64,000 nt of DNA from Escherichia phage vB_EcoM_G37-3: the sequence record MK327941.1. One strand, 5' to 3'. The stretch's first letter is position 1. Each line of letters starts with the position of its first letter. The translations under genes and the position numbers were made by a program. This document shows positions 2,326 to 63,989 of the stretch, one piece after another. The notes under the pieces were generated by a model, which saw only the letters and a program-made list of their open reading frames with translations, did not search any database and was not told where the DNA came from.

Positions 2326-2502
2326 TTACATTAACAGCATTGTTTGCTCTACGAGTTGTTCTTGTTCTTCGCCGTTCGCATCTTCACTAATCGAACGTTC
2401 TGTTACTAGCTGTAAGCAGTAGCCAGTGTGAACAACGCCGTTTTCTGTCTGGACGGATAACGCATCCTCGACAGGTTGTTTACAACAAATACAGATTTTC
2501 AT
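2326..2502 (-). CDS. small Cys-rich protein (58 aa), in the uvsY.-2 position; not in ORF track
   Basis: AGGAGGAATTTTT-ATG; MKICICCKQPVED...; directly downstream of uvsY. Confidence 0.5.
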   Translation of the reverse strand: MKICICCKQPVEDALSVQTENGVVHTGYCLQLVTERSISEDANGEEQEQLVEQTMLLM

Positions 2503-13730: not shown

Positions 13731-13943
13731 TTATAATGCACCATCGAGCAATTGCTCTAAGGTGTATCCTGAATAGTCTTTTTCAATCAGGATATATTTT
13801 CCTACTCGTTTAATACAACCGCGCATTTCAACATATTCTGCGTAGTTGATGGTGCGAGTTGTTCCATCTTCTAGCAAAGCAGTACCGATTTCGTTAATGC
13901 GGTCATAAGTTACGTAGGTAATGATGATTTCGATGTTAGCCAT
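13731..13943 (-). CDS. small early protein (70 aa)
   Basis: True start MANIEIII at 13943 with AAGGAG; the longer track ORF reads through the promoter. Confidence 0.6.
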   Translation of the reverse strand: MANIEIIITYVTYDRINEIGTALLEDGTTRTINYAEYVEMRGCIKRVGKYILIEKDYSGYTLEQLLDGAL

Positions 13944-14014: not shown

Positions 14015-14533
14015 TTAGTTATTTTTTAATTGCTCATCTTGCAATAGGGCAATCACATGCTGGCGATGTTCTTCCGATTGAGGCACACCGAAAAAGTTTG
14101 TTTTGTAGAAATACTCTAATCGGTCTTCTCGTGTGCTCTCTTCCATCATGATCGCGGGTAGTCCGAGATTTCGGAAACGTCGCTTTTCTGCTGGCGTAAA
14201 ATCACTGTAATACAACATAGAATCATCATTACCAGCAATGCTAAACTCATCTTTCATAAAGGAGAATATTGCGTTTAAACGCTGTTTACCGTCCACGATT
14301 TCGATCTCATAGCGAGAGCCATCATCAATCTTAGCCATTGCGATAGCACCAACCGGAAAATCATTAATCAGGTTTTCGATAAACATACGTTTGTTTTCGG
14401 TGTCCCATACCAAAGGACGCTGATAATCTGGGTTCATGTTGATATATCCATCTTCTAACCACGCCTCATAAACAGAGATGACAAAGTTTTTAGTATTGGT
14501 ATAGTAACGGCGTTTAGGCGTTAAACGGTTCAT
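14015..14533 (-). CDS. DUF262 / ParB-like nuclease domain protein (172 aa)
   Basis: PDYQRPLVW and IVDGKQRL (DGQQR-type) motifs; start MNRL at 14533 with AGGAG; last gene of 5-gene operon. Confidence 0.7.
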   Translation of the reverse strand: MNRLTPKRRYYTNTKNFVISVYEAWLEDGYINMNPDYQRPLVWDTENKRMFIENLINDFPVGAIAMAKIDDGSRYEIEIVDGKQRLNAIFSFMKDEFSIAGNDDSMLYYSDFTPAEKRRFRNLGLPAIMMEESTREDRLEYFYKTNFFGVPQSEEHRQHVIALLQDEQLKNN

Positions 14534-15580: not shown

Positions 15581-15822
15581 ATACGCCCCTTTAATCCAAC
15601 ACAGATTTTAGAAGGTTCTTTGCCGTGCCACATTAAGTAAAGTCCGTTAATGCGGCCTTGTTTTGTATATGATTCTTTTCTGATCTTCTTATAGTGTCGT
15701 GTTTCCTCAGCCGATTGTTTAGAATACCAATCATAAAGGAAGATGAACAAAGGCCACCCATTAGCGGCCTTAATGCAGTTATTCAAAAATTCCTTATTGC
15801 GTTTAATTAATTTTCTTTTCAC
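15577..15822 (-). CDS. hypothetical protein (81 aa)
   Basis: ORF with 4-nt overlaps to both neighbours. Confidence 0.55.
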   Translation of the reverse strand: MKRKLIKRNKEFLNNCIKAANGWPLFIFLYDWYSKQSAEETRHYKKIRKESYTKQGRINGLYLMWHGKEPSKICVGLKGRI

Positions 15823-16070
15823 GCTGCCCCCATTGGTTTGATAGTAACAGAATCTAAAAGACCTTTGTTAGCCAGTTCGCGGCAAGTTTTCAGATCCGCA
15901 ACTTCCCAACCAGCCGCAATCAGGTTATCAATCAGGCTGTTAGCAACTTCTTCGCTCATGAAAGAGCACTGTTTGCCGATGGTGTAGCGTACACGCTGTA
16001 ATTTCAGTTTACGGAAGCCTTTAACGTTCAGGTCTTTAGCGATTTTCTTTGCGGTTTCGATGTTAGCCAT
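15819..16070 (-). CDS. hypothetical protein (83 aa), first gene of operon
   Basis: ORF immediately downstream of promoter cassette. Confidence 0.6.
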   Translation of the reverse strand: MANIETAKKIAKDLNVKGFRKLKLQRVRYTIGKQCSFMSEEVANSLIDNLIAAGWEVADLKTCRELANKGLLDSVTIKPMGAA

Positions 16071-16110
16071 TGTTTGATTCTCCTAAGTGGTATCTCGTCT
16101 TGATGGTTGT

Positions 16111-16139
16111 ATTGTAGGGGAGTTATCCTCCCCTGTCAA
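16111..16139 (-). promoter_or_regulatory. early promoter cassette (PeSL-like)
   Basis: TTGACA-GGGGAGGATAACTCCCC-TACAAT on minus strand. Confidence 0.55.
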
Positions 16140-16153
16140 CACTTTTTATAAAA

Positions 16154-16321
16154 TTATTTGTTAATTTCTGGTGCGTTGCTAGGATAGTAACCTTCTTTAA
16201 CACCCAGATATTTTGCAACCATCCCTACAATCTTCTGTGCTACTACAATGTCAAATTTCAGATAATCTTCGCCGTGGGTTTCAATGATATATGCTTCACA
16301 TGCTGCTTTAGTCTCGAACAT
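16154..16321 (-). CDS. small protein (55 aa), copy 1 of duplicated gene; not in ORF track
   Basis: GGAGAATCAAA-ATG; MFETKAACEAYIIETHGEDYLKFDIVVAQKIVGMVAKYLGVKEGYYPSNAPEINK. Confidence 0.55.
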   Translation of the reverse strand: MFETKAACEAYIIETHGEDYLKFDIVVAQKIVGMVAKYLGVKEGYYPSNAPEINK

Positions 16322-16354
16322 TTTGATTCTCCTATTTCGTTTCGTTATGTGTGT

Positions 16355-16383
16355 ATTATAGGGGATCTCCCGATCCCCGTCAA
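16355..16383 (-). promoter_or_regulatory. early promoter cassette (PeSL-like)
   Basis: TTGACG-GGGATCGGGAGATCCCC-TATAAT. Confidence 0.6.
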
Positions 16384-16397
16384 CAACTTTTTTAAAA

Positions 16398-16679
16398 TTA
16401 TTCGTGATTAGTTTCGATGTTGTGCATTTTGCACCAGTTCAGCCAATCACCCAGATCCTGATAGTTAATGCTTTTATCTGCTGCCATCGTTTTTGTCTTG
16501 ATACCCATATGTGCGTTATGAGTAAGCATTTTTACAGTGAACTCAATTTTATCACCTTTAGCTTTAACATCAACCAGTTTGGTCCACTGGCTACCAGCGC
16601 CGCGAATGTTCATACCAACGATGTTTCCGATGTATGCTTCTTTGTTTTTCAGGATTTCGGTTGCTTTGATGAATTTCAT
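16398..16679 (-). CDS. hypothetical protein (93 aa)
   Basis: ORF with conserved leader and GGAG. Confidence 0.6.
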   Translation of the reverse strand: MKFIKATEILKNKEAYIGNIVGMNIRGAGSQWTKLVDVKAKGDKIEFTVKMLTHNAHMGIKTKTMAADKSINYQDLGDWLNWCKMHNIETNHE

Positions 16680-16749
16680 TTTTGATTCTCCAGTTCGTTT
16701 CGGTATGTGTGTATTATGCTATGTTCTTACTTTGGTGTCAACAACTTTT

Positions 16750-17019
16750 TTAGATATTTTCAGAAATAAATTTTAAAACTTGACGTAAATGTTTCTCATC
16801 TTTGATAGTCGCCGGAAGTTCTTCTTTTACTTCCTGTGCAAGATAGATATTTCCGTTCCAAGTGAAAGATCCGTCTTCGTTTACGCGATAGCTGAACATC
16901 CACTCGCAATCATTTTCGATTTCATATACACACAGAAGGGTGTAATCGTTAAAGCTATTGATTTCAAGGTCGAAGCCGTGACGTTTTGCAAAGTTGGTAG
17001 TGGTTTTAGTCAGAGCCAT
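16750..17019 (-). CDS. hypothetical protein (89 aa)
   Basis: ORF with conserved leader. Confidence 0.6.
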   Translation of the reverse strand: MALTKTTTNFAKRHGFDLEINSFNDYTLLCVYEIENDCEWMFSYRVNEDGSFTWNGNIYLAQEVKEELPATIKDEKHLRQVLKFISENI

Positions 17020-17098
17020 TGTTTGATTCTCCTAAATGGTATCTCGTTTCGATGTGTGTATTATGCTATAGGCCGGATCTGGTGTCAATGCCTTTTTT

Positions 17099-17123
17099 AA
17101 AAAAGCCGACACTAAGGTCGGCT
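17099..17123 (-). terminator. rho-independent terminator downstream of 17131 gene
   Basis: AGCCGAC-CTTAGT-GTCGGCT then TTTTTT on minus strand. Confidence 0.5.
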
Positions 17124-17130
17124 AATAAAA

Positions 17131-17439
17131 TCATTTAGACAAGTAATCATTCTGTGCAATACGGTCGGCGTATGCTGGTGTTATGTCAATCGCCAGCACT
17201 TTAACGCGTGCTTTCTTGCGACCTGGGTTTTCTCGTAACCAGTGCTCATGACCGTGAACATTTTTATACTTTGATGCTTCTTCAAATGTACGGATCGGAC
17301 CTGGGTAATCAGCGTAAAGGATCTCTAGGTCTTCGGTGATGTAAAAATATACATCGTAATTACTGTTCTCTAGTTTAAGCAGAGAGTTGCGAAATTGTGG
17401 TAAATTCTCGCGGGTAAATTCAACTACAAGATTTTTCAT
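17131..17439 (-). CDS. small protein family member (102 aa), HxHW / LAxD family
   Basis: YFYITEDL ... HGHEHW ... VLAIDI; paralog of six neighbours. Confidence 0.65.
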   Translation of the reverse strand: MKNLVVEFTRENLPQFRNSLLKLENSNYDVYFYITEDLEILYADYPGPIRTFEEASKYKNVHGHEHWLRENPGRKKARVKVLAIDITPAYADRIAQNDYLSK

Positions 17440-17489
17440 AGTGATATCCTCATTCAGATAGATTAAAAGGGGGCTTAACGCCCCGTATA

Positions 17490-17777
17490 TTAAAACAGTC
17501 CTTCCTGTACACCGTAGTAGAGTTCATCGCTGATAATTTCATTAATGCGACGGTGTGCATATTCCTGATTTGCGAAGTTATCAGCAAGTTCTACTTTAGT
17601 TTCGCCGTCATGAGTCCATTTAGTGATAACTTTACCATCTGCAAATTTGAAGTTGAACTCTTTAGCTACTGCATCGCGTACCAGACGTGCGAACTTGTTG
17701 TTACGGATTGCATTATCGGTTTCGTGTGCAGCGTGAGCGAATTTGTTAACTTTCAGAGTGATAGTAATGTATGCCAT
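17490..17777 (-). CDS. hypothetical protein (95 aa); paralog of 21019..21330
   Basis: shared AxR..VR.A.AKEFN.K motif. Confidence 0.6.
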   Translation of the reverse strand: MAYITITLKVNKFAHAAHETDNAIRNNKFARLVRDAVAKEFNFKFADGKVITKWTHDGETKVELADNFANQEYAHRRINEIISDELYYGVQEGLF

Positions 17778-17823
17778 AATTTGATTCTCCTAGTTAGAAA
17801 GTGTATCTCGTTTCGATGGGGAT

Positions 17824-17852
17824 ATTATGCTATATCCCCGATCCGGTGTCAA
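17824..17852 (-). promoter_or_regulatory. early promoter cassette (PeSL-like)
   Basis: TTGACA, 17-nt spacer, CATAAT. Confidence 0.5.
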
Positions 17853-17858
17853 CACTTT

Positions 17859-18137
17859 TTATAAAATAATTTTTTGATATTTTTCTATGATGTTCGTGTA
17901 AGTCACATCAACCGCTAGCACCGTTGCTTCGAATCCACCGTTTAGCCAATGGCTATGATCATGATCGTGAAAGAAACCTAGACCAGTACGAAGACCTTCT
18001 TTATATTCTGCGCGTACATTCAGTTTGTCGTCGATAAACAGATAAAACCATGAATTTTTACTAGGATTGATGATACAACCTTTCAGATTAGGGAGAATAT
18101 CACGACTAAGAATAAACTTATCACCTACTTTGAGCAT
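17859..18137 (-). CDS. small protein family member (92 aa)
   Basis: start MLKVGD with GAGGAA; FYLFIDDKL ... HDHSHW ... VLAVDV. Confidence 0.6.
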   Translation of the reverse strand: MLKVGDKFILSRDILPNLKGCIINPSKNSWFYLFIDDKLNVRAEYKEGLRTGLGFFHDHDHSHWLNGGFEATVLAVDVTYTNIIEKYQKIIL

Positions 18138-18151
18138 AATATTTTCCTCAC

Positions 18152-18460
18152 TTATAAAGTTTGACCGTTGTTTTTCGCGTAATGCTGAATGCGTGCTTGA
18201 TCTGCTTCCGCTGGTGATAGATTCCATGCGATCACTACAACTTCTGACGCATCATGATCATTATCACTTACCCAATGATTATGATTCATACAATTGTTTG
18301 CTATCGCGTGAGCAAATGATCTCATTACCGGAGACGTATAATCATAGTAACGGATTTTCAGATTTTCATCAACGTACAAGTAGATCGTATACGGCTTATA
18401 TTCAGTAACCAGTAACAGACAGTTACGCAATTCTGGGAAAATCTTTTTAGTTAATTTCAT
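18152..18460 (-). CDS. small protein family member (102 aa)
   Basis: start MKLTKK with GAGGA; YLYVDENL ... NHNHW ... VIAWNL. Confidence 0.6.
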   Translation of the reverse strand: MKLTKKIFPELRNCLLLVTEYKPYTIYLYVDENLKIRYYDYTSPVMRSFAHAIANNCMNHNHWVSDNDHDASEVVVIAWNLSPAEADQARIQHYAKNNGQTL

Positions 18461-18461
18461 T

Positions 18462-18680
18462 TTATAATCCTCGGTCGCGGCTATAGTACACGGTACGCCA
18501 TACAATTTCATGTTTCGTGTCGCTCCAGCACACGATCTCATTTACTCTTAAATCTTTGTTATCAACAAAAGATGAACATTGTGACGCTTCTTTCATCATT
18601 TTATCTGCTGTTTTCTCATCAAATACAGCACAGATTTCTTTATACACTCGATAATCTTTGAATTGACTCTGGATACTCAT
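18462..18680 (-). CDS. hypothetical protein (72 aa); paralog of the next gene
   Basis: SQFKDYRVYKEICAVFDEKTADKMMKEASQCSSF. Confidence 0.55.
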   Translation of the reverse strand: MSIQSQFKDYRVYKEICAVFDEKTADKMMKEASQCSSFVDNKDLRVNEIVCWSDTKHEIVWRTVYYSRDRGL

Positions 18681-18682
18681 AA

Positions 18683-18892
18683 TTAACACCAATCAAGAGT
18701 TTTTGAGAAAACCTCTATCCATTGTTGAGTATATGCGGTTTCTTTCCATGATACAATACCAGTAGAATAATGGTTTTTGTTTCCAGAAAAGGACGGGCAT
18801 TTTGATGCATCTTCCATCATCTTTTCGGCGAACTCTGGTTCGTATACCCGCAAAATCTGTTGATATGCTTTGTATTCTTTAAATTTGCTCAT
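18683..18892 (-). CDS. hypothetical protein (69 aa); paralog of previous gene
   Basis: SKFKEYKAYQQILRVYEPEFAEKMMEDASKCPSF. Confidence 0.55.
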   Translation of the reverse strand: MSKFKEYKAYQQILRVYEPEFAEKMMEDASKCPSFSGNKNHYSTGIVSWKETAYTQQWIEVFSKTLDWC

Positions 18893-19157
18893 AATCATTC
18901 ACTACCTTATCAGCTTCTTTTGTTGTTTTTACATCAACTGCGATAACCCGTAAAGGTTCGTCATGGTTCCACCAATGATCGTGAATATCGGCTTGTGATT
19001 TATCACCAAAGGAATCACGAATATCATTTTTACATTTATAGCTAATGTGACCGTCATAGTCAACATAAAGGTAATTATCGAAAATCGGCGTTTTTAAGAT
19101 CATACCGAAAAATCTTTCTTTGTGTGTCTTATCCAGTGTTGCAGTAATTCGCATCAT
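18879..19157 (-). CDS. small protein family member (92 aa)
   Basis: YLYVDYDGH ... HDHWW ... VIAVDV. Confidence 0.6.
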   Translation of the reverse strand: MMRITATLDKTHKERFFGMILKTPIFDNYLYVDYDGHISYKCKNDIRDSFGDKSQADIHDHWWNHDEPLRVIAVDVKTTKEADKVVNDYEQI

Positions 19158-19169
19158 AATATATTCCTC

Positions 19170-19349
19170 TTAGAAAGGGATGGTCATTTCTTGAGCTTGT
19201 ACATTCTCGTTAGGATTAAACTTCATCCAACCGATATTGTCTACCAGCATATGTACATTTTTATCATATCCTACGTGAGTAGTCAACACTAAATGTGCTT
19301 TACCTTCAACGATGATTTCCATGTACTTCTGAACTTCGATAGCTTTCAT
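19170..19349 (-). CDS. small protein (59 aa); not in ORF track
   Basis: GGAGAATCAAA-ATG; MKAIEVQKYMEIIVEGKAHLVLTTHVGYDKNVHMLVDNIGWMKFNPNENVQAQEMTIPF; own promoter cassette upstream. Confidence 0.5.
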   Translation of the reverse strand: MKAIEVQKYMEIIVEGKAHLVLTTHVGYDKNVHMLVDNIGWMKFNPNENVQAQEMTIPF

Positions 19350-19413
19350 TTTGATTCTCCGTTTGTTGTCTTGATGGGAGTATCTTACTACTCCCTTTAA
19401 TCATTGTCAACGA

Positions 19414-19581
19414 TTATTTGTTAATTTCCGGTGCGTTGCTTGGATAGTAGCCTTCTTTAACACCCAGATATTTTGCAACCATTCCGGTGATCTTCTGTGC
19501 TACTACGATATCGAATTTCAGGTAGTCTTCACCGTGGTTTGCTACAATGTATGCTTCGCATTCTGCTTTAGTCTGGAACAT
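19414..19581 (-). CDS. small protein (55 aa), copy 2 of duplicated gene; not in ORF track
   Basis: about 85 percent nt identity to 16154..16321; MFQTKAECEAYIVANHGEDYLKFDIVVAQKITGMVAKYLGVKEGYYPSNAPEINK. Confidence 0.55.
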   Translation of the reverse strand: MFQTKAECEAYIVANHGEDYLKFDIVVAQKITGMVAKYLGVKEGYYPSNAPEINK

Positions 19582-19615
19582 TTTTGATTCTCCTATATCT
19601 CGTTGGTATGTGTGT

Positions 19616-19644
19616 AGTATAGGGGATCACCGATCCCCTGTCAA
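19616..19644 (-). promoter_or_regulatory. early promoter cassette (PeSL-like)
   Basis: TTGACA-GGGGATCGGTGATCCCC-TATACT. Confidence 0.6.
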
Positions 19645-19652
19645 CAACTTTT

Positions 19653-19943
19653 TTATTCTTTATACGCATATTTCATAAATTTGTCTGCTACTTCATCGGC
19701 ATGTTCCGATTCTACGCCGGATTCGAGAACAATAGCAAGGTCGGTTTCGTCGTGACCTTCGTACCAGTGATTATGTGTGTCGTTTGAATCAATATAGAAT
19801 TTATCACCTTCGTAAGTTCGAGCAAATACATCTAAATTCTCGTCGATGTAAAAGATCCAATCTTCATAAAGAATAACCGTATTAGCAAGGTTCTTATTAC
19901 CTTCAACGAAAGGTTCGGCTACAAACAAATCAGTACGTTCCAT
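19653..19943 (-). CDS. small protein family member (96 aa)
   Basis: FYIDENL ... THNHW ... LAIVLE. Confidence 0.6.
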   Translation of the reverse strand: MERTDLFVAEPFVEGNKNLANTVILYEDWIFYIDENLDVFARTYEGDKFYIDSNDTHNHWYEGHDETDLAIVLESGVESEHADEVADKFMKYAYKE

Positions 19944-19958
19944 AGTATTTTCCTCAAA

Positions 19959-20120
19959 TTAAGAAAAAGCGTTGAAAACACCCGCCAACACAACTACGTT
20001 AGCGATAAGGCTTAAAAAGCATTTCTTGATACTTTCAGTGCAGATACCAATACTGGCAGGAATTACACCGATCACGATAGCATAAAGAATAACTGCGATT
20101 TCTTGAAATACACCGTTCAT
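19959..20120 (-). CDS. small hydrophobic membrane protein (53 aa); not in ORF track
   Basis: GAGGATAATATT-ATG; MNGVFQEIAVILYAIVIGVIPASIGICTESIKKCFLSLIANVVVLAGVFNAFS. Confidence 0.5.
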   Translation of the reverse strand: MNGVFQEIAVILYAIVIGVIPASIGICTESIKKCFLSLIANVVVLAGVFNAFS

Positions 20121-20176
20121 AATATTATCCTCAATTTGTGGGAGAGTATTACCCTCCCGATTATTGTTATACTACA

Positions 20177-20479
20177 TTACGCAAAATGGCGTGTCAATAC
20201 TTCTTTTGCTGTTCCGCTAAGATTCTCGATCTCTCCTGGCATAACATCAACCGCCAGAACTTCTACAACATCCTCTGATCCTAACCAGTGAGTATGACCT
20301 TTGTAGAACTTGATATCCCATTTATCGCTATCGCTAGCCCACCACACATCACCGTCTATAAAGTTGATGTAAAGCACACTACGACACATTGAATTAGTTA
20401 CTTTCAATACTGCGCCTTTCATCTCTTCCACGGTATGGTCTTCCATTTTGAAGACCTCGCCTACCTTAACTTTTGCCAT
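20177..20479 (-). CDS. small protein family member (100 aa)
   Basis: start MAKVKV; LYINFIDGD ... GHTHW ... VLAVDV. Confidence 0.6.
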   Translation of the reverse strand: MAKVKVGEVFKMEDHTVEEMKGAVLKVTNSMCRSVLYINFIDGDVWWASDSDKWDIKFYKGHTHWLGSEDVVEVLAVDVMPGEIENLSGTAKEVLTRHFA

Positions 20480-20480
20480 G

Positions 20481-20747
20481 TTACATGCTCCGAATATGTT
20501 TAGATGCATCTTCCAGTTCGTCGATAGTGACACTGTGAGCCAGTAAGTGTACTGGTTGTGGTTCTTCACCTTCCATAGTATTGATCAGATGACCGTTTCC
20601 TGGGTGGAATGTATCGTTGCCGTTCCAAATAGCATACACATCATCTTCTGTTACGTAGATAATAAGTCCAATCGGTGATTCTGGTAATTGAAAAATTTTA
20701 CCCACTGCATCTTTGCGATTGTTTACGATATCTTTTACTGTCTTCAT
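20481..20747 (-). CDS. small protein family member, divergent (88 aa)
   Basis: IIYVTEDD ... GNGH ... LLAHSV. Confidence 0.5.
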   Translation of the reverse strand: MKTVKDIVNNRKDAVGKIFQLPESPIGLIIYVTEDDVYAIWNGNDTFHPGNGHLINTMEGEEPQPVHLLAHSVTIDELEDASKHIRSM

Positions 20748-20766: not shown

Positions 20767-20946
20767 TTACATCACAATCACGCCAGCCGTTGAAAGTTGA
20801 TGTTTCAACTGAGCATTTTCTGCTACTGTCAAATCAATGATTTCTTGTGACGCTGCAATCATATAGCCATTGGTGATATTGTTTTGCATCAGTTCAATGG
20901 TTTCTTCGTTGTAGCGGATTTTAGCGATGATTTCGTTGAAGTTCAT
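20767..20946 (-). CDS. small protein (59 aa); not in ORF track
   Basis: GGAGAATCAAAC-ATG; MNFNEIIAKIRYNEETIELMQNNITNGYMIAASQEIIDLTVAENAQLKHQLSTAGVIVM. Confidence 0.5.
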   Translation of the reverse strand: MNFNEIIAKIRYNEETIELMQNNITNGYMIAASQEIIDLTVAENAQLKHQLSTAGVIVM

Positions 20947-23738: not shown

Positions 23739-24198
23739 CTCGTTTTGTTAAACGTTCACGAATATCATTGAGGATACTACAAAATTCCGATTCAGTCAAT
23801 ATAGTCTTTAACGGATCAGTTCCACCTATGCTATGACGTAATTTCTTATTTCCTGTAGCGAGTAATGCTTTACAAAATTCTGGGTTATTCCGTGCCATCG
23901 TAACAAATGCCAGATGTACCAGTCTGTAATAATGCTCACTCATTCGATGAATCGGGCGACCCTGAAAATATAACATGTGATTCTCAATCTTTTCAGTTCT
24001 TCCGGTTCTTTTTGCTTTGCCACCGTGCATCAAAAAGATTTCTCTTTGTCTCTGAGGGTTCTTAAATCTTAGCCCCTGTAAAAATCCTTCTGTGCTGTTA
24101 ATATCGCAACCAAATAGACGGAATGGTCTTTTATTGAAATTACTCAATTCACCAGATGGATAAGGTCCACCCGCATAGATATCAATTTCAGAAGTCAT
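23719..24198 (-). CDS. NADAR (YbiA-like) domain protein (159 aa)
   Basis: SNF, STEGFLQGLRF (cf. SEHYFQAQKF), GGKAKRTGR, ALLATGNKKL motifs. Confidence 0.65.
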   Translation of the reverse strand: MTSEIDIYAGGPYPSGELSNFNKRPFRLFGCDINSTEGFLQGLRFKNPQRQREIFLMHGGKAKRTGRTEKIENHMLYFQGRPIHRMSEHYYRLVHLAFVTMARNNPEFCKALLATGNKKLRHSIGGTDPLKTILTESEFCSILNDIRERLTKRGENVNS

Positions 24199-24352
24199 TG
24201 AAACTAATCTCGCTAATCAGAGAGAACGGATCATAATCGTCATTAGGAATATCGATAGTAATCGAATGAGGATTTACCCATACACCAAACTGGTCTTCTT
24301 CGGTGAATACTTCGGTATGGATTTCGTGGATGTTTACATTCATAGTTTTCAT
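24188..24352 (-). CDS. small protein (54 aa); not in ORF track
   Basis: AAGGAATTTTATT-ATG; stop overlaps NADAR-like gene start. Confidence 0.4.
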   Translation of the reverse strand: MKTMNVNIHEIHTEVFTEEDQFGVWVNPHSITIDIPNDDYDPFSLISEISFNDF

Positions 24353-30230: not shown

Positions 30231-30380
30231 TTATGCAACCGCAAACATCAACATTTGAACATTCTTGGCTGTCTGGCTTTCAAAGTTCTGACATTCTTTG
30301 ATAATGTCCTCTACTTTCTCGCCGGAGATCTCCGCGTAAGTTTCGATTGCCATTTTAAGTACCGCGTCAAAGTTGTTCAT
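30231..30380 (-). CDS. small protein (49 aa); not in ORF track
   Basis: GGAGAATCAA-ATG; MNNFDAVLKMAIETYAEISGEKVEDIIKECQNFESQTAKNVQMLMFAVA. Confidence 0.45.
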   Translation of the reverse strand: MNNFDAVLKMAIETYAEISGEKVEDIIKECQNFESQTAKNVQMLMFAVA

Positions 30381-31531: not shown

Positions 31532-32691
31532 AGATATTTCCCGAATCGGTTGTAGTCGTCGTCTGTTAAATCGGTATTAACCTGAGATACCAGATACATA
31601 ATCTCTACTTCTTGCGCTGCATTCTGTACTTCGTCAGAGTTCAACCATTTACGCATCCACGGTAACGGATGACGACGAACACTAAACGGGCTTTTCAGTC
31701 CGGCAGCACGCATACGGGAATCTGCCAGGTATTCTACATAGGTTTTCAGAATTTCCGGTGACAGGTTAGGAATTGCCCCCATTGCGAATAGGTGGTCTAC
31801 CCATTCTTTTTCTTGCTCGACAACATCCAGAAAGATTTTCGTTGCTTCACCTTCAAGTTCTTCCGCAATCTGTTTCCACTCATCACCATCAACCCCCGTT
31901 TGCCATTGACGAATAATGTATTGTGTGCCTTTTAAGTGAAGTTGTTCATCACGCGCAATAAATTTCATGATCTTCGCGTTACCTTCCAGTAAACCACGTT
32001 CGGCAAAGCTGAAAGTACATGCAAAGGACACATAAAAACGAATTGCTTCCAGTGCATTGACGCAGTGTGCACACAGATAAATCGAAGCCATCAGATCTCG
32101 TTTTGTATCTTCAAAAAATCTTCTTGCATCATCTAATGCTGTCTGGTCGTCTCGTTCTTCCCAATAGCGGAGATCTTCTTTTGCATTCTCATACTTACGA
32201 ATCCAATAAAGAACATCATCATAATATTTCCCGATAGATTCCGCTCGCTTCATGATAGCAGGGTTATCGATGATCTGGTCGAACTCACTAGCCGGATCAA
32301 TGAAACAGTTACGCATAATGTGTGTATAGCTTCGGCTATGAATCGTTTCGCTGAATGTCCATGTTTGCAACCATGTATCGAGAGTTGGATCAGATACAAT
32401 TGGACCAAATACACGGGCTGGCGCTCTGCCTTGAATCGAATCTAGCAAAGTTTGATAACGTAAGTTCTCGGTGAAGAAACGCTTTTCAACATCGCTCATA
32501 TTCAGATATTGAATGCGGTCAGTTGCAAGTGAAATCTCTTCTGGACGCCAGAAAAATGACAACTGCTTCTCGATCAACTCTTCAAATACTTGATGACGCT
32601 GAATATCATAACGAGCAATCCCTAAATCACTACCAAAAAACATCGGTTCGGTCATAATATCAACATGTTCACGATTAAATACGCTCATCAC
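31528..32691 (-). CDS. nrdB: ribonucleotide reductase small subunit
   Basis: 387 aa uninterrupted; synteny. Confidence 0.9.
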   Translation of the reverse strand: MMSVFNREHVDIMTEPMFFGSDLGIARYDIQRHQVFEELIEKQLSFFWRPEEISLATDRIQYLNMSDVEKRFFTENLRYQTLLDSIQGRAPARVFGPIVSDPTLDTWLQTWTFSETIHSRSYTHIMRNCFIDPASEFDQIIDNPAIMKRAESIGKYYDDVLYWIRKYENAKEDLRYWEERDDQTALDDARRFFEDTKRDLMASIYLCAHCVNALEAIRFYVSFACTFSFAERGLLEGNAKIMKFIARDEQLHLKGTQYIIRQWQTGVDGDEWKQIAEELEGEATKIFLDVVEQEKEWVDHLFAMGAIPNLSPEILKTYVEYLADSRMRAAGLKSPFSVRRHPLPWMRKWLNSDEVQNAAQEVEIMYLVSQVNTDLTDDDYNRFGKYL

Positions 32692-33230
32692 TATTCTCCA
32701 TCAATTTTGTTTATATTGTAACCCATGTTGCCTTTTTCTATTTCTCTCAACGCAACTGAATTAAACGCTCTTGCCGCATCTTGTTCGCTATCAAATCTCC
32801 CTATATGAACACTCTTTCCTTGTATATTAATATGAACTAGCCATCTATTTGTGTACTTACACCAACTTACCCCGTTATATTTTGATGATGCACCTTTAAA
32901 TTTAGTTCTGTTTCGATTGTTGACAGAATAATCAGTACCTCGTAAATTTTCTATATGATTGTTCAGCTTGTTTCGGTCGATGTGATCTATAACTTTAGGC
33001 TTATGCCCGTGAAACATATGATAAATCACATGATGTATTAACTTCTTTCTATTGTCTACTGTTAGTTGAAGATATCCCCCATTATGTGGACTTCCAACCT
33101 CATCACCAACTTTAACTTTATTGCTTGTTGAAACCTTTCTGAAAAGTTTACCATCTTCGTATTTAAATAGATAATGATACCTTTCGTAAAGTATTCGGTC
33201 CTCTTCCGTATAATGTATTACCTCATACAT
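32691..33230 (-). CDS. HNH + AP2-domain homing endonuclease (mobE-like position)
   Basis: 179 aa; IDHIDRNKLNN (HNH) and YNGVSWCK...HIGRFDSEQDAARAFN (AP2-like). Confidence 0.7.
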   Translation of the reverse strand: MYEVIHYTEEDRILYERYHYLFKYEDGKLFRKVSTSNKVKVGDEVGSPHNGGYLQLTVDNRKKLIHHVIYHMFHGHKPKVIDHIDRNKLNNHIENLRGTDYSVNNRNRTKFKGASSKYNGVSWCKYTNRWLVHINIQGKSVHIGRFDSEQDAARAFNSVALREIEKGNMGYNINKIDGE

Positions 33231-33606
33231 AATATTTTACTCACTTTTTAACACAAAAGAACTTAGTATTTCTGTTAACTTCGCTATCCTGCTGCAATTC
33301 CTGCACAGCTTCAAAACAATTTTGATGTGATGAAAACTCTACGCTGGTAACAGTTCCTTTATTATATACGCCTACGCTAACGGAAAGCAATAACCATACA
33401 GTAGCCATTATCCTACAACCTCAAAGCATTTATCATCAGGAAGAATAGCCCATTCTACGCCATATTCATCCTCAACGTAGTAGCAAGCCCCATCATGTCG
33501 AGCATCATATACATCACCGACAACAAAGCTATCAGCTAGCTAAAAATCTACAGCAACACATTTTAATTTGGTCATAATAAAATCCTCACTTGTTTTTGAT
33601 GGTTGT

Positions 33607-37177: not shown

Positions 37178-37418
37178 CCCACATCACCTTTTTCTTATTG
37201 ATTGCTTTCTTACGCAGTTTTGCTACTGTCTCGTCAATGTCTATAAAGATAACACCACGGTCGAATATAGTAGCAGGTCTTGATATATCGCTATTTTCTT
37301 GCACAGGAAGCCATGATGCGCTCGCTTCATCATAGAGATATTGTAAACCGTAATAATCTACGGCTACTGCGTAGTTTTCACTGGTAGCTGACCATAATTG
37401 AATAATACCGACTTTCAT
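37149..37418 (-). CDS. hypothetical protein (89 aa from MKVGIIQ)
   Basis: ORF between frd and td; start uncertain. Confidence 0.45.
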   Translation of the reverse strand: MKVGIIQLWSATSENYAVAVDYYGLQYLYDEASASWLPVQENSDISRPATIFDRGVIFIDIDETVAKLRKKAINKKKVMWDERIFETIA

Positions 37419-37511
37419 TATTGTTCCCGTCCGCAATGTAAACACCGACTACCAGCAAACATCAAAGATTCACCACAATGTTTGCACTCATAATCTGTCA
37501 GAATTTTCATG

Positions 37512-56153: not shown

Positions 56154-56479
56154 TCTGGAAACTTCCCGTAAACATTCTCTGCTAGCTTACGTGCATCTTT
56201 TACAATATCTTTCATGTAATGACTATAATTTTTAGCTAGATCAATGATACAATCAACAAAGAAGTAATAGCGTCGCAGTGCTACCAGCTCAACATCTTCA
56301 AGATGACCATTTTCTCCAATCGCTGAAATGTGTTTAAATTCCTTTCGGATCGCGTCCATCGCTACATTAACTTCTTTTATAATATCTTTCGTATTATATG
56401 CACCTCGACTAATCAAAATTTTGGTTAGGTCTTCTGCTTTTTCGTGAAAGTTGTCAATTTCAAACTCGATCATAATCAC
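56150..56479 (-). CDS. hypothetical protein (109 aa); paralog of 56588..56920
   Basis: shared helical pattern, both end ...EN(V/I)(Y/F)GKF. Confidence 0.55.
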   Translation of the reverse strand: MIMIEFEIDNFHEKAEDLTKILISRGAYNTKDIIKEVNVAMDAIRKEFKHISAIGENGHLEDVELVALRRYYFFVDCIIDLAKNYSHYMKDIVKDARKLAENVYGKFPE

Positions 56480-56587
56480 CTCTCATAATTTCACGCTGTT
56501 GTTTCAACATTTTTTCGTGGTTTGCTAATTCTATACCTTGTAATAGCATAACCAGTGCAATTTTCAATGATTCATCATCTTTCATAA

Positions 56588-58994: not shown

Positions 58995-59150
58995 TTAAAT
59001 TTCTTCTACAGTAAAGTCTTCAATGTTGTTGTGCTCGGAGAACGTTGCCAGACCAGCATTCCATGCATCATCCTCAGAGAAGAATACGCCGTAACGTTCA
59101 TATCCTTTAGAGCCTTCAAATTTAACCATTAATTTGTGAGTATGTTTCAT
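58995..59150 (-). CDS. small protein (51 aa)
   Basis: true start MKHTHK with AAGGAG; the track ORF N-terminus MLTGDRRSPI is translated promoter sequence. Confidence 0.5.
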   Translation of the reverse strand: MKHTHKLMVKFEGSKGYERYGVFFSEDDAWNAGLATFSEHNNIEDFTVEEI

Positions 59151-63857: not shown

Positions 63858-63989
63858 TTATTTTGCTTCGACAACCTTGCGGATTGTGCGGTCTGATACA
63901 TTATAGATTCGTGCCAGTTCGCCTTTAGTCAAACCGCGAGCGTATTGTTTACGGATGGTTTCTTTCTGGATGGCGGTCAGTTTAGTCAT
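63858..63989 (-). CDS. small HTH protein (43 aa), or the C-terminal end of a longer gene (rIIA) running off the window
   Basis: GAGGTGATATT-ATG; ...GLTKGELARIYNVSDRTIRKVVEAK resembles rIIB N-terminal HTH; frame stays open to window end. Confidence 0.35.
   Translation of the reverse strand: MTKLTAIQKETIRKQYARGLTKGELARIYNVSDRTIRKVVEAK

Follow-up and report, generated by a model that had tools for sequence, protein, structure and literature searches.

Paralogous 55-residue early-gene cassettes, probably from one old duplication, in the hyperplastic region of a Krischvirus

The window analyzed here is a 64,000-nucleotide stretch of Escherichia phage vB_EcoM_G37-3 (sequence record MK327941.1), a Krischvirus, i.e., an RB49-like T4-type coliphage. 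It contains two similar open reading frames (ORFs) that each encode 55 amino acids: copy A at 16154..16321 and copy B at 19414..19581. Both, like the other genes of the region, are read as the reverse complement, on the minus strand. An annotation made earlier from the letters alone (the original prediction) had proposed a duplicated gene at these coordinates, which are right, with about 85 percent nucleotide identity between the copies; comparison of the coding sequences (CDSs) gives 145 of 168 identical nucleotides (86.3%). A repeat finder independently returned a direct repeat of 172 nt, 87% identical, with a spacing of 3,260 bp. At the protein level, 49 of 55 residues are the same (89%), the six differences lying at positions 3, 7, 13-15, and 32, and the last 22 residues are identical; paralogue-specific tryptic peptides are AACEAYIIETHGEDYLK (A) and AECEAYIVANHGEDYLK (B). 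Both proteins match the phrog_8009 profile (55 positions) end to end, over positions 1-55. Copy A is 98% identical in amino acid sequence to RB49p191, and copy B is 100% identical to RB49p205. The nucleotide differences between the copies are unevenly spread, with 20 of the 23 in the first 99 nt and three in the last 69 nt, and the last third of the CDS includes a 32-nt identical run. Partial conversion long ago could have produced this unevenness, as could a C-terminal third under stronger constraint.

The reading frames behave as coding sequence. Codon changes between A and B comprise 14 synonymous and six non-synonymous changes, which by the NG86 method gives a non-synonymous divergence (dN) of 0.055, a synonymous divergence (dS) of 0.75, and a dN/dS of 0.07. 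Similarly, the third codon position accounts for five of six variable sites among A orthologues (n = 7) and five of seven among B orthologues (n = 8). When the pair is compared with homologues from other phages, dN is 0.12-0.25, and dS is saturated or very high (1.73 in the only comparison of six that allowed its calculation). Every two-copy relative opened, including RB49, Phi1, and Makalu_002, has both copies annotated as CDSs, and the RB49 annotation of both dates from 2003. Fifty-eight phage records, all of them RB49-like Krischvirus, match the region 15800-20200 with nucleotide identities of 92-97%. With carriage of the alt gene taken as the mark of a Krischvirus record (n = 58), tblastn finds at least one copy of the 55-residue gene in every record: two copies in 51 and one in seven. 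Conservation of the frames in relatives, named by the original prediction as a check, thus holds for the pair, in the form of 58/58 retention, annotated orthologues, and a dN/dS of 0.07. As far as can be judged from sequence, both ORFs are real genes.

What lies upstream of the two genes? Each is preceded by a promoter cassette that, with its GGAGAATCAAA leader, is the promoter-early stem-loop (PeSL) of Arbiol et al. 2010 (PMC2839356), an identity that the original prediction missed, as it missed the annotation of the genes in relatives. A PeSL runs from an AT-rich region through a sigma70-like promoter, with a stem-loop of a G-tract and a C-tract between or over the promoter boxes, to a Shine-Dalgarno (SD) sequence and a start codon (PMC2839356). 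In the window, the AT-rich tract upstream of the −35 box begins at the stop codon of the upstream gene and reads TAATTTTAAAAAAGTTG for A and TAAAGAATAAAAAAGTTG for B. The promoter of A consists of TTGACG (16383-16378), a 17-nt spacer, and TATAAT (16360-16355), and that of B consists of TTGACA (19644-19639), a 17-nt spacer, and TATACT (19621-19616), with 11 of 12 hexamer matches in each case. The spacers hold hairpins of 7-8 bp, GGGGATC-GGGA-GATCCCC in A and GGGGATC-GGT-GATCCCC in B, which are present in both the minimum-free-energy (MFE) and the centroid structures; the MFE structure for A is at −14.9 kcal/mol, and whole-segment z-scores are only −2.2 (A) and −1.4 (B). The SD and start stand at the PeSL 3′ end, as AGGAGAATCAAA(A)ATG. 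Hence, the original prediction was correct that each copy has a promoter cassette of its own (an 11/12 sigma70 promoter plus a spacer hairpin) and a leader-ATG start, AGGAGAATCAAA-ATG for A and AGGAGAATCAAAA-ATG for B.

Published work bears directly on the activity of these elements. RB49 and phi1 carry ~50 PeSLs per genome, mostly in hyperplastic regions and upstream of ORFans (PMC2839356). PeSL206/205, which lies before the gene of copy B, was cloned in a lacZ fusion and proved a strong promoter (~13,000 Miller units), with most clones acquiring promoter-down mutations; promoter activity in vivo was likewise reported for PeSL193/192 (PMC2839356). The stem-loop of another member, PeSL211/210, terminates transcription as well as rrnB T1 (PMC2839356). 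The RB49 early promoter consensus also agrees with the mapped 5′ ends of transcripts (Nolan et al. 2006, PMC1524935). Downstream of copies A and B lie PeSL191/190 and PeSL205/204, respectively, the latter of the other PeSL class, in which the stem-loop overlaps the −10 box. By analogy with the tested PeSL211/210, the PeSL191/190 stem-loop is presumed to act as an attenuator of copy A transcripts.

The cassette is a repeated element of the window. Eighteen PeSLs were counted, all on the minus strand, and they fall into the published classes, with the stem-loop either in the spacer or overlapping the −10 box. Pairwise identity between cassettes is 54-86%, with two repeat families, D1 (six copies) and D2 (five copies). 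Between 15700 and 21500, each of the ten sites that most resemble promoters lies on the minus strand in an intergenic gap. With at most one mismatch allowed, the window has 15 occurrences of the GGAGAATCAAA motif, every one on the minus strand, compared with an expectation of 2.0; a count of 15 was reached in 0 of 100 shuffles. Larger ORFs, of 70-103 residues, are preceded by the leader as well (at 16070, 16679, 17019, 17777, and 21330); the leader therefore marks the cassette rather than small genes as such. An Rfam scan of the whole window matched no family.

The age of the duplication can be read from the genomes that retain both copies. Nucleotide identity among the A copies of five two-copy genomes (RB49, Phi1, Makalu_002, one IMG/VR genome, and the window) is 97-99%, and among their B copies it is 97.6-99.4%; A versus B is 84-88% in all five. 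Because A groups with A and B with B, the duplication is judged to predate the sampled genus, and the copies are evidently not being homogenised. Similarity between A and B stops within ~4 nt of the stop codon, and the downstream PeSLs belong to different classes. This pattern fits the copying of a PeSL-bounded single-gene cassette by PeSL recombination, a mode we infer from the sequences. A larger segmental duplication, pairing ORF210..205 with ORF198..191, was considered and rejected: BLASTP finds no significant similarity between ORF198 and ORF210, and the remaining paralogues make up a diffuse multi-copy family that lacks colinearity.

Natural deletions reveal what PeSLs do in these genomes. 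Four of the seven single-copy genomes were opened (Cognac, FL04, JK32, and MIZ4), and all four have a chimeric PeSL at the deletion junction, with four different crossovers. In Cognac and FL04, ORF206 is followed by a single chimeric cassette and then ORF190, with the whole block between the copies gone. The Cognac cassette has a B-type PeSL up to ...CCAACGAGATAT and an A-type CDS from codon 3, the crossover lying in AGGAGAATCAAAATGTTC; in FL04, the switch from B (TTGACAGGGGATC) to A (GGGAGATCCCC) occurs within the stem. The two deletions are independent events. In JK32, ORF191 alone is excised, leaving a chimeric PeSL193/190 that is of 193/191 type to the −10 region and of 191/190 type after it. 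In MIZ4, ORF191 to ORF186 are deleted, with the junction within a PeSL. The junctions agree with the crossover zones reported for recombination mini-circles, namely −10-to-ATG and the stem-loop (PMC2839356). Judged from these junctions, PeSL repeats are active recombination substrates. The four independent natural deletions confirm a mechanism proposed earlier from two genomes and the products of the polymerase chain reaction.

Homologues of the 55-residue protein occur outside Krischvirus. Those in siphoviruses of 45-47 kb (for example, Swiduovirus swi2 gp36 and Salmonella phages SeSz-2, D10, and Pu29) and in two IMG/VR contigs, L009 (41 kb) and L010 (31 kb), whose copies are most like the siphovirus ones, are 70-72% identical in amino acid sequence. 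A closer homologue (P0003), at 83% identity, is from an unrelated contig of phage-like character, and the contigs that carry the family include one from Logan with a small terminase. A hidden Markov model (HMM) search of 1.84 billion representative proteins returned three credible relative clusters only (P0001, P0005, and P0007). P0006, from the same search, was set aside as a chimeric assembly, and the other returns were low-complexity matches in long proteins; P0004, a 3′-chimeric assembly, was left out. Complete E. coli genomes, searched for prophages, gave no nucleotide match to the gene. In L009 (2236-2299) and L010 (3941-4004), a sigma70 consensus promoter (TTGACG-17-TACTAT) and, after it, the leader AACGAAACGAAATTGAGGAATTGAAAATG precede the homologue, the corresponding leader of copy A being AACGAAACGAAATAGGAGAATCAAAATG. 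The contig leader shares a 13-nt exact match (AACGAAACGAAAT) with the leader of copy A and is the sole such motif in those loci. This suggests, on sequence similarity, that promoter, leader, and ORF moved together between phages.

The explanation we favor is that A and B are paralogous early ORFan cassettes of the Krischvirus hyperplastic region, derived from one old duplication, PeSL-bounded, and kept under purifying selection; it is very probably right. Each copy would be an autonomous transcription and translation unit in which a PeSL precedes the ORF. This PeSL would supply the AT-rich tract, a near-consensus sigma70 promoter with a G/C-rich spacer hairpin, a short conserved leader, and a strong SD, AGGAGAATCAAA. 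Host RNA polymerase would transcribe both copies immediately after infection, and the hairpin of the next PeSL after the ORF would attenuate read-through. The single old duplication likely arose by PeSL recombination, through mini-circle re-insertion or unequal crossing-over, and both copies would have been retained since then under purifying selection. Because PeSLs are repeats with 60-86% identity, they would keep serving as substrates for the phage's homologous recombination. Either copy could thus be lost, alone or with the intervening genes, with at least one always kept.

Several observations weigh against this explanation. First, no transcript, ribosome-profiling, or peptide evidence for these ORFs was found in the literature on Krischvirus transcriptomics and proteomics. 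Second, the PeSLs upstream of A and B are 86% identical, barely above the 85% between the PeSLs of A and ORF209; between the PeSLs of A and ORF185, identity is 81%. Such similarity is thus generic among PeSLs, and the flanks fail to mark the boundaries of the duplication, co-duplication of the PeSL, or the mode of duplication. Co-duplication of the upstream PeSL was for this reason dropped as a claim. Third, no U-tract follows the PeSL hairpins, so their terminator function is taken from published work (PMC2839356) and not from the sequence. Fourth, the protein has no Pfam match at E ≤ 1, no NCBIfam match, and no PDB sequence profile match at E ≤ 1, and a Foldseek search of the PDB with its predicted structure returned nothing better than E 5.6.

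It is possible to explain the pair without a duplication in this lineage, if related alleles from outside donors entered two PeSL slots independently as mobile cassettes. The presence of the gene family in unrelated phages (swi2 gp36, the Salmonella siphoviruses, and the IMG/VR and Logan contigs) is in line with this, and the Krischvirus-type promoter and leader (AACGAAACGAAAT...GAGGAAT) that accompany the L009 and L010 genes imply that a whole cassette can move. In addition, the A/B dS of 0.75 far exceeds the genome-wide divergence of the genus. However, A and B are mutually closest, with 89% amino acid identity compared with 83% for P0003 and 70-72% for the siphovirus homologues; they have in common an APEINK tail that is absent from the siphovirus versions; and no donor nearer to just one copy appears among the 1.84 billion representative proteins. 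Because A and B are each other's nearest relatives, independent acquisition is the weaker alternative, and we consider it quite improbable.

A second alternative is that A and B resemble each other owing to ongoing or partial gene conversion, and not to purifying selection on two independent genes. The clustering of differences at the 5′ end of the CDS and the long identical run toward its 3′ end are what conversion could leave behind. Nevertheless, all five two-copy genomes carry the A-specific states in copy A and the B-specific states in copy B, and no CDS is a mosaic of the two. Moreover, the last 22 codons are identical as protein too, such that constraint explains much of the pattern, and synonymous changes show no apparent departure from uniformity along the gene (3 of 14 in the last 22 codons, a rough estimate with no formal test). 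Conversion as the source of the similarity is accordingly rated highly unlikely, and an old duplication retained under purifying selection is the preferred account of the pair.

Table 1. Features of the 55-residue gene pair, its flanks, and the other small genes in the window
Feature	Coordinates	Strand	Details
Copy A, 55-residue ORF	16154..16321	minus	RB49/phi1 ORF191 orthologue; phrog_8009 E 7e-38
Copy B, 55-residue ORF	19414..19581	minus	RB49/phi1 ORF205 orthologue; phrog_8009 E 1e-38
PeSL upstream of A (PeSL193/191 type)	16322..16397	minus	SD AGGAGAATCAAA; repeat family D1 member
PeSL upstream of B (PeSL206/205)	19582..19652	minus	SD AGGAGAATCAAAA
PeSL downstream of A (PeSL191/190)	16071..16153	minus	Drives ORF190; −20.5 kcal/mol, z −3.7
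PeSL downstream of B (PeSL205/204)	19350..19413	minus	Drives ORF204; −15.2 kcal/mol, z −3.8
Block between copies, 10 small early genes (ORF204..ORF193)	16398..19349	minus	Deleted in Cognac, FL04
59-residue gene, RB49 ORF204 (p204)	19170..19349	minus	Own PeSL, GGAGAATCAAA leader; phrog_15082
59-residue gene, RB49 ORF209 (p209)	20767..20946	minus	Own PeSL, 12/12 consensus promoter, GGAGAATCAAAC leader; phrog_14803; 55 records
53-residue hydrophobic ORF in ORF207 slot	19959..20120	minus	Own promoter and stem-loop, SD GAGGATAATATT
58-residue uvsY.-2, Pfam DUF2685	2326..2502	minus	No PeSL, SD caGGAGGAattttt; conserved T4-type gene
54-residue gene, RB49p215 (31.-1 in AJ550428)	24188..24352	minus	SD AAGGAATTTTATT; phrog_15277; 59 records
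49-residue gene, RB49p226	30231..30380	minus	PeSL with stem-loop overlapping −10, GGAGAATCAA leader; phrog_21179
51-residue gene, RB49p263	58995..59150	minus	PeSL (GGGGATCGCCGATCCCC), GGAGAATCAAA leader; phrog_19699

The original prediction also listed seven other ORFs of fewer than 60 residues as sharing the same leader. All seven exist, on the minus strand (Table 1), and those at 19170, 20767, 30231, and 58995 do have the leader; those at 2326, 19959, and 24188 have other SDs. Six of the seven are annotated in RB49, the exception being 19959..20120, and five (19170, 20767, 24188, 30231, and 58995) combine the RB49 annotation with a full-length PHROG match. The ORF at 2326..2502 matches DUF2685 with 54.3 bits (cut-off 25), and its RB49 counterpart, RB49p172 uvsY.-2, is 100% identical in amino acid sequence and lies directly beside uvsY. 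The genes at 19170, 20767, and 24188 are found in 55-59 phage records, RB49-like ones only, with the first of them (ORF204) in 56 records at 90-100% amino acid identity. Comparison with RB49 gives 0-5 differences for each of these other small ORFs, which makes per-gene dN/dS uninformative. The ORF at 19959..20120 is absent from RB49 and shared only with the FL15 and Makalu_002 records; it differs from Makalu_002 at two nucleotides, both non-synonymous. This rare ORFan is a plausible candidate gene, though weakly supported. The original list was also incomplete, as further intact small genes lie at 33241..33408, 37418..37510, 56460..56585, and 63858..63989, and the window has at least 13 genes of fewer than 60 residues. 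The proposal that such genes are real and are hidden merely by a 60-residue display cut-off is supported by the paralogue dN/dS, the family matches, and the RB49 annotations. It is extremely improbable that the small ORFs are chance open frames, untranslated, in spacer DNA between regulatory cassettes: the lack of direct expression data in the literature, the occurrence of 19959..20120 in three genomes only and without synonymous-substitution support, and an in-frame TAG in the RB49 ORF233 homologue (33408..33575), which implies that some small genes are dispensable, are outweighed for the pair by dN/dS 0.07, cross-family conservation at saturated or very high dS, optimal SD spacing, and 58/58 retention, and for the other ORFs by full-length family matches and frames intact in 55-59 records.

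Some of these loci differ between the window and RB49. At 19959-20220, the window has the same PeSL as RB49 (L012 21053-21344), with a GGGAGGG...CTCTCCC stem-loop and SD GAGGATAATATT, followed by a wholly different ORF: RB49 has the 63-residue soluble ORF207 in that slot, and the window has the 53-residue hydrophobic ORF, a clean example of ORF replacement. The ORF233 homologue (33408-33575, minus strand) retains a consensus PeSL promoter and has its TAG at codon 12, where RB49 has GAA; this makes it an amber allele or, alternatively, a small early gene that a nonsense mutation has inactivated. RB49 has p231, p232, and p233 in tandem (L013 983-1490), and the window has two of them at 33241-33575, with p232 missing. 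The genes p231 and p232 appear to be paralogues, since RB49 p232 matches the p231 locus of the window (38% identity, E 6e-10).

Other features of the early region concern neighboring genes. Much of the block between the 55-residue copies is occupied by a paralogue family of ~90-100 residues on the minus strand (17131-17439, 17859-18137, 18152-18460, 18879-19157, and 20177-20479, and probably 19653-19943 and 20481-20747). Its members have a C-terminal "HxHW ... V(L)AVDV" motif, are related by BLASTP at E 2e-15 to 5e-3, and have no Pfam match. The genes at 18462-18680 and 18683-18898 (minus strand) are tandem paralogues, equivalent to RB49 ORF201/ORF202, with 40% identity over 63 residues (E 6e-16). 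ORF185 and ORF190 have a common leader and first five codons (MANIE; 13915-13943 versus 16042-16070), and ORF190 and ORF194 are 76% identical over 79 nt spanning the start (16035-16113 versus 16984-17062). This extension of PeSL homology into the CDS suggests that past crossovers swapped N-termini. Two further minus-strand genes are of nuclease type. First, 32691-33230 encodes a 179-residue homing-endonuclease-like protein with HNH_3 and AP2 domains, between nrdB and the small genes upstream of nrdA, a position at which RB49 has no gene. Second, the product of 14015-14533, in the early region, has a nuclease-type domain, GmrSD_N (DUF262; E 4e-20); the corresponding position in RB49 holds p187 (519 nt).

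What might the 55-residue protein do? AlphaFold2, run on a shallow alignment, places helices at residues 5-16 and 18-39, followed by a disordered tail, with a predicted local distance difference test (pLDDT) score of 67 and a predicted template modelling (pTM) score of 0.37. The protein is soluble and is predicted, with low confidence, to form a two-helix hairpin. Its early expression signals, small size, universal retention in at least one copy, and horizontal spread lead to the guess that it is an early accessory factor for host interaction or anti-defence, which is possible, with the odds somewhat against it. A bolder reading starts from the presence of at least one copy in 58/58 records and from the location of the A/B differences, mainly on one helix (3, 7, 13-15, 32). 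Under that reading, the gene would be a selected, mobile early gene that crosses families among enterobacterial myo- and siphoviruses with its own promoter and leader, and not a dispensable ORFan; the paralogues would be specialised, on one helix, against two variants of a host target or defence; and the pair would serve as a direct repeat for shedding and regaining a 3-kb ten-gene block. This combination is unlikely.

What are the implications of these observations? First, a substantial fraction of the genuine early genes of T4-type phages is lost from view at a 60-residue display cut-off, and the repeated promoter/SD cassette is a reliable flag for such small genes. Second, the biological gain is incremental: a PeSL-bounded cassette can undergo duplication and afterwards persist for long, and unrelated siphovirus contigs contain a cassette complete with its leader. 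The pair, the promoter cassette, and the shuffling mechanism have already been published or annotated years ago for these very loci, and the novelty of the locus is low for that reason. The residual interest lies in the role of a universally retained, horizontally mobile early protein of 55 residues.

The closest known system is that of the PeSL-ORFan cassettes, and the loci are identical: A is ORF191 and B is ORF205 (PMC2839356). The architecture is also the same, with an AT-rich tract, TTGACA-N17-TATAAT, a GGGG...CCCC stem-loop, an SD, and ATG (PMC2839356). ORF192 is the model ORFan of that work, which also sequenced an ORF191-194 recombination mini-circle, such that ORF191 lies inside (PMC2839356). 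The window is phi1-like in that it is without ORF192, which in RB49 lies between ORF193 and ORF191 and is absent from phi1; it differs from RB49 also in having no ORF195, 196, or 196.1 and a different ORF in the 207 slot. The difference from Arbiol et al. 2010 and its sequel is that ORF191 and ORF205 were not described there as paralogues; neither PMC2839356 nor the 2014 sequel contains "paralog" or, in the gene-duplication sense, "duplicat". Hence, the present observations are small additions to a known mechanism, of which the Cognac, FL04, JK32, and MIZ4 deletions supply new natural instances. Membership in phrog_8009 sets the pair apart from nothing, as the family has no assigned function and explains nothing mechanistic.

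Two other systems invite comparison. Phage morons (Hendrix and colleagues) are autonomous promoter-gene-terminator units that sit as insertions between other genes of the phage; they were defined in temperate lambdoid phages, and their expression is from the prophage. Like morons, the cassettes each combine one small accessory gene and a promoter of its own with a stem-loop downstream, are variably present, and are exchanged between unrelated phages. They differ in being early genes of a virulent T4-type phage and in being bounded by a repeated, conserved regulatory sequence that is itself the recombination site. Integron cassettes depend on an integrase, attC and attI sites, and a single Pc promoter. 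The likeness is in the arrays of small, mostly orphan genes and in the excision of circles with re-insertion at repeated boundaries. In contrast, PeSL cassettes have no integrase, attC, or attI, each has its own promoter, and their recombination is thought to be homologous and carried out by the phage machinery.

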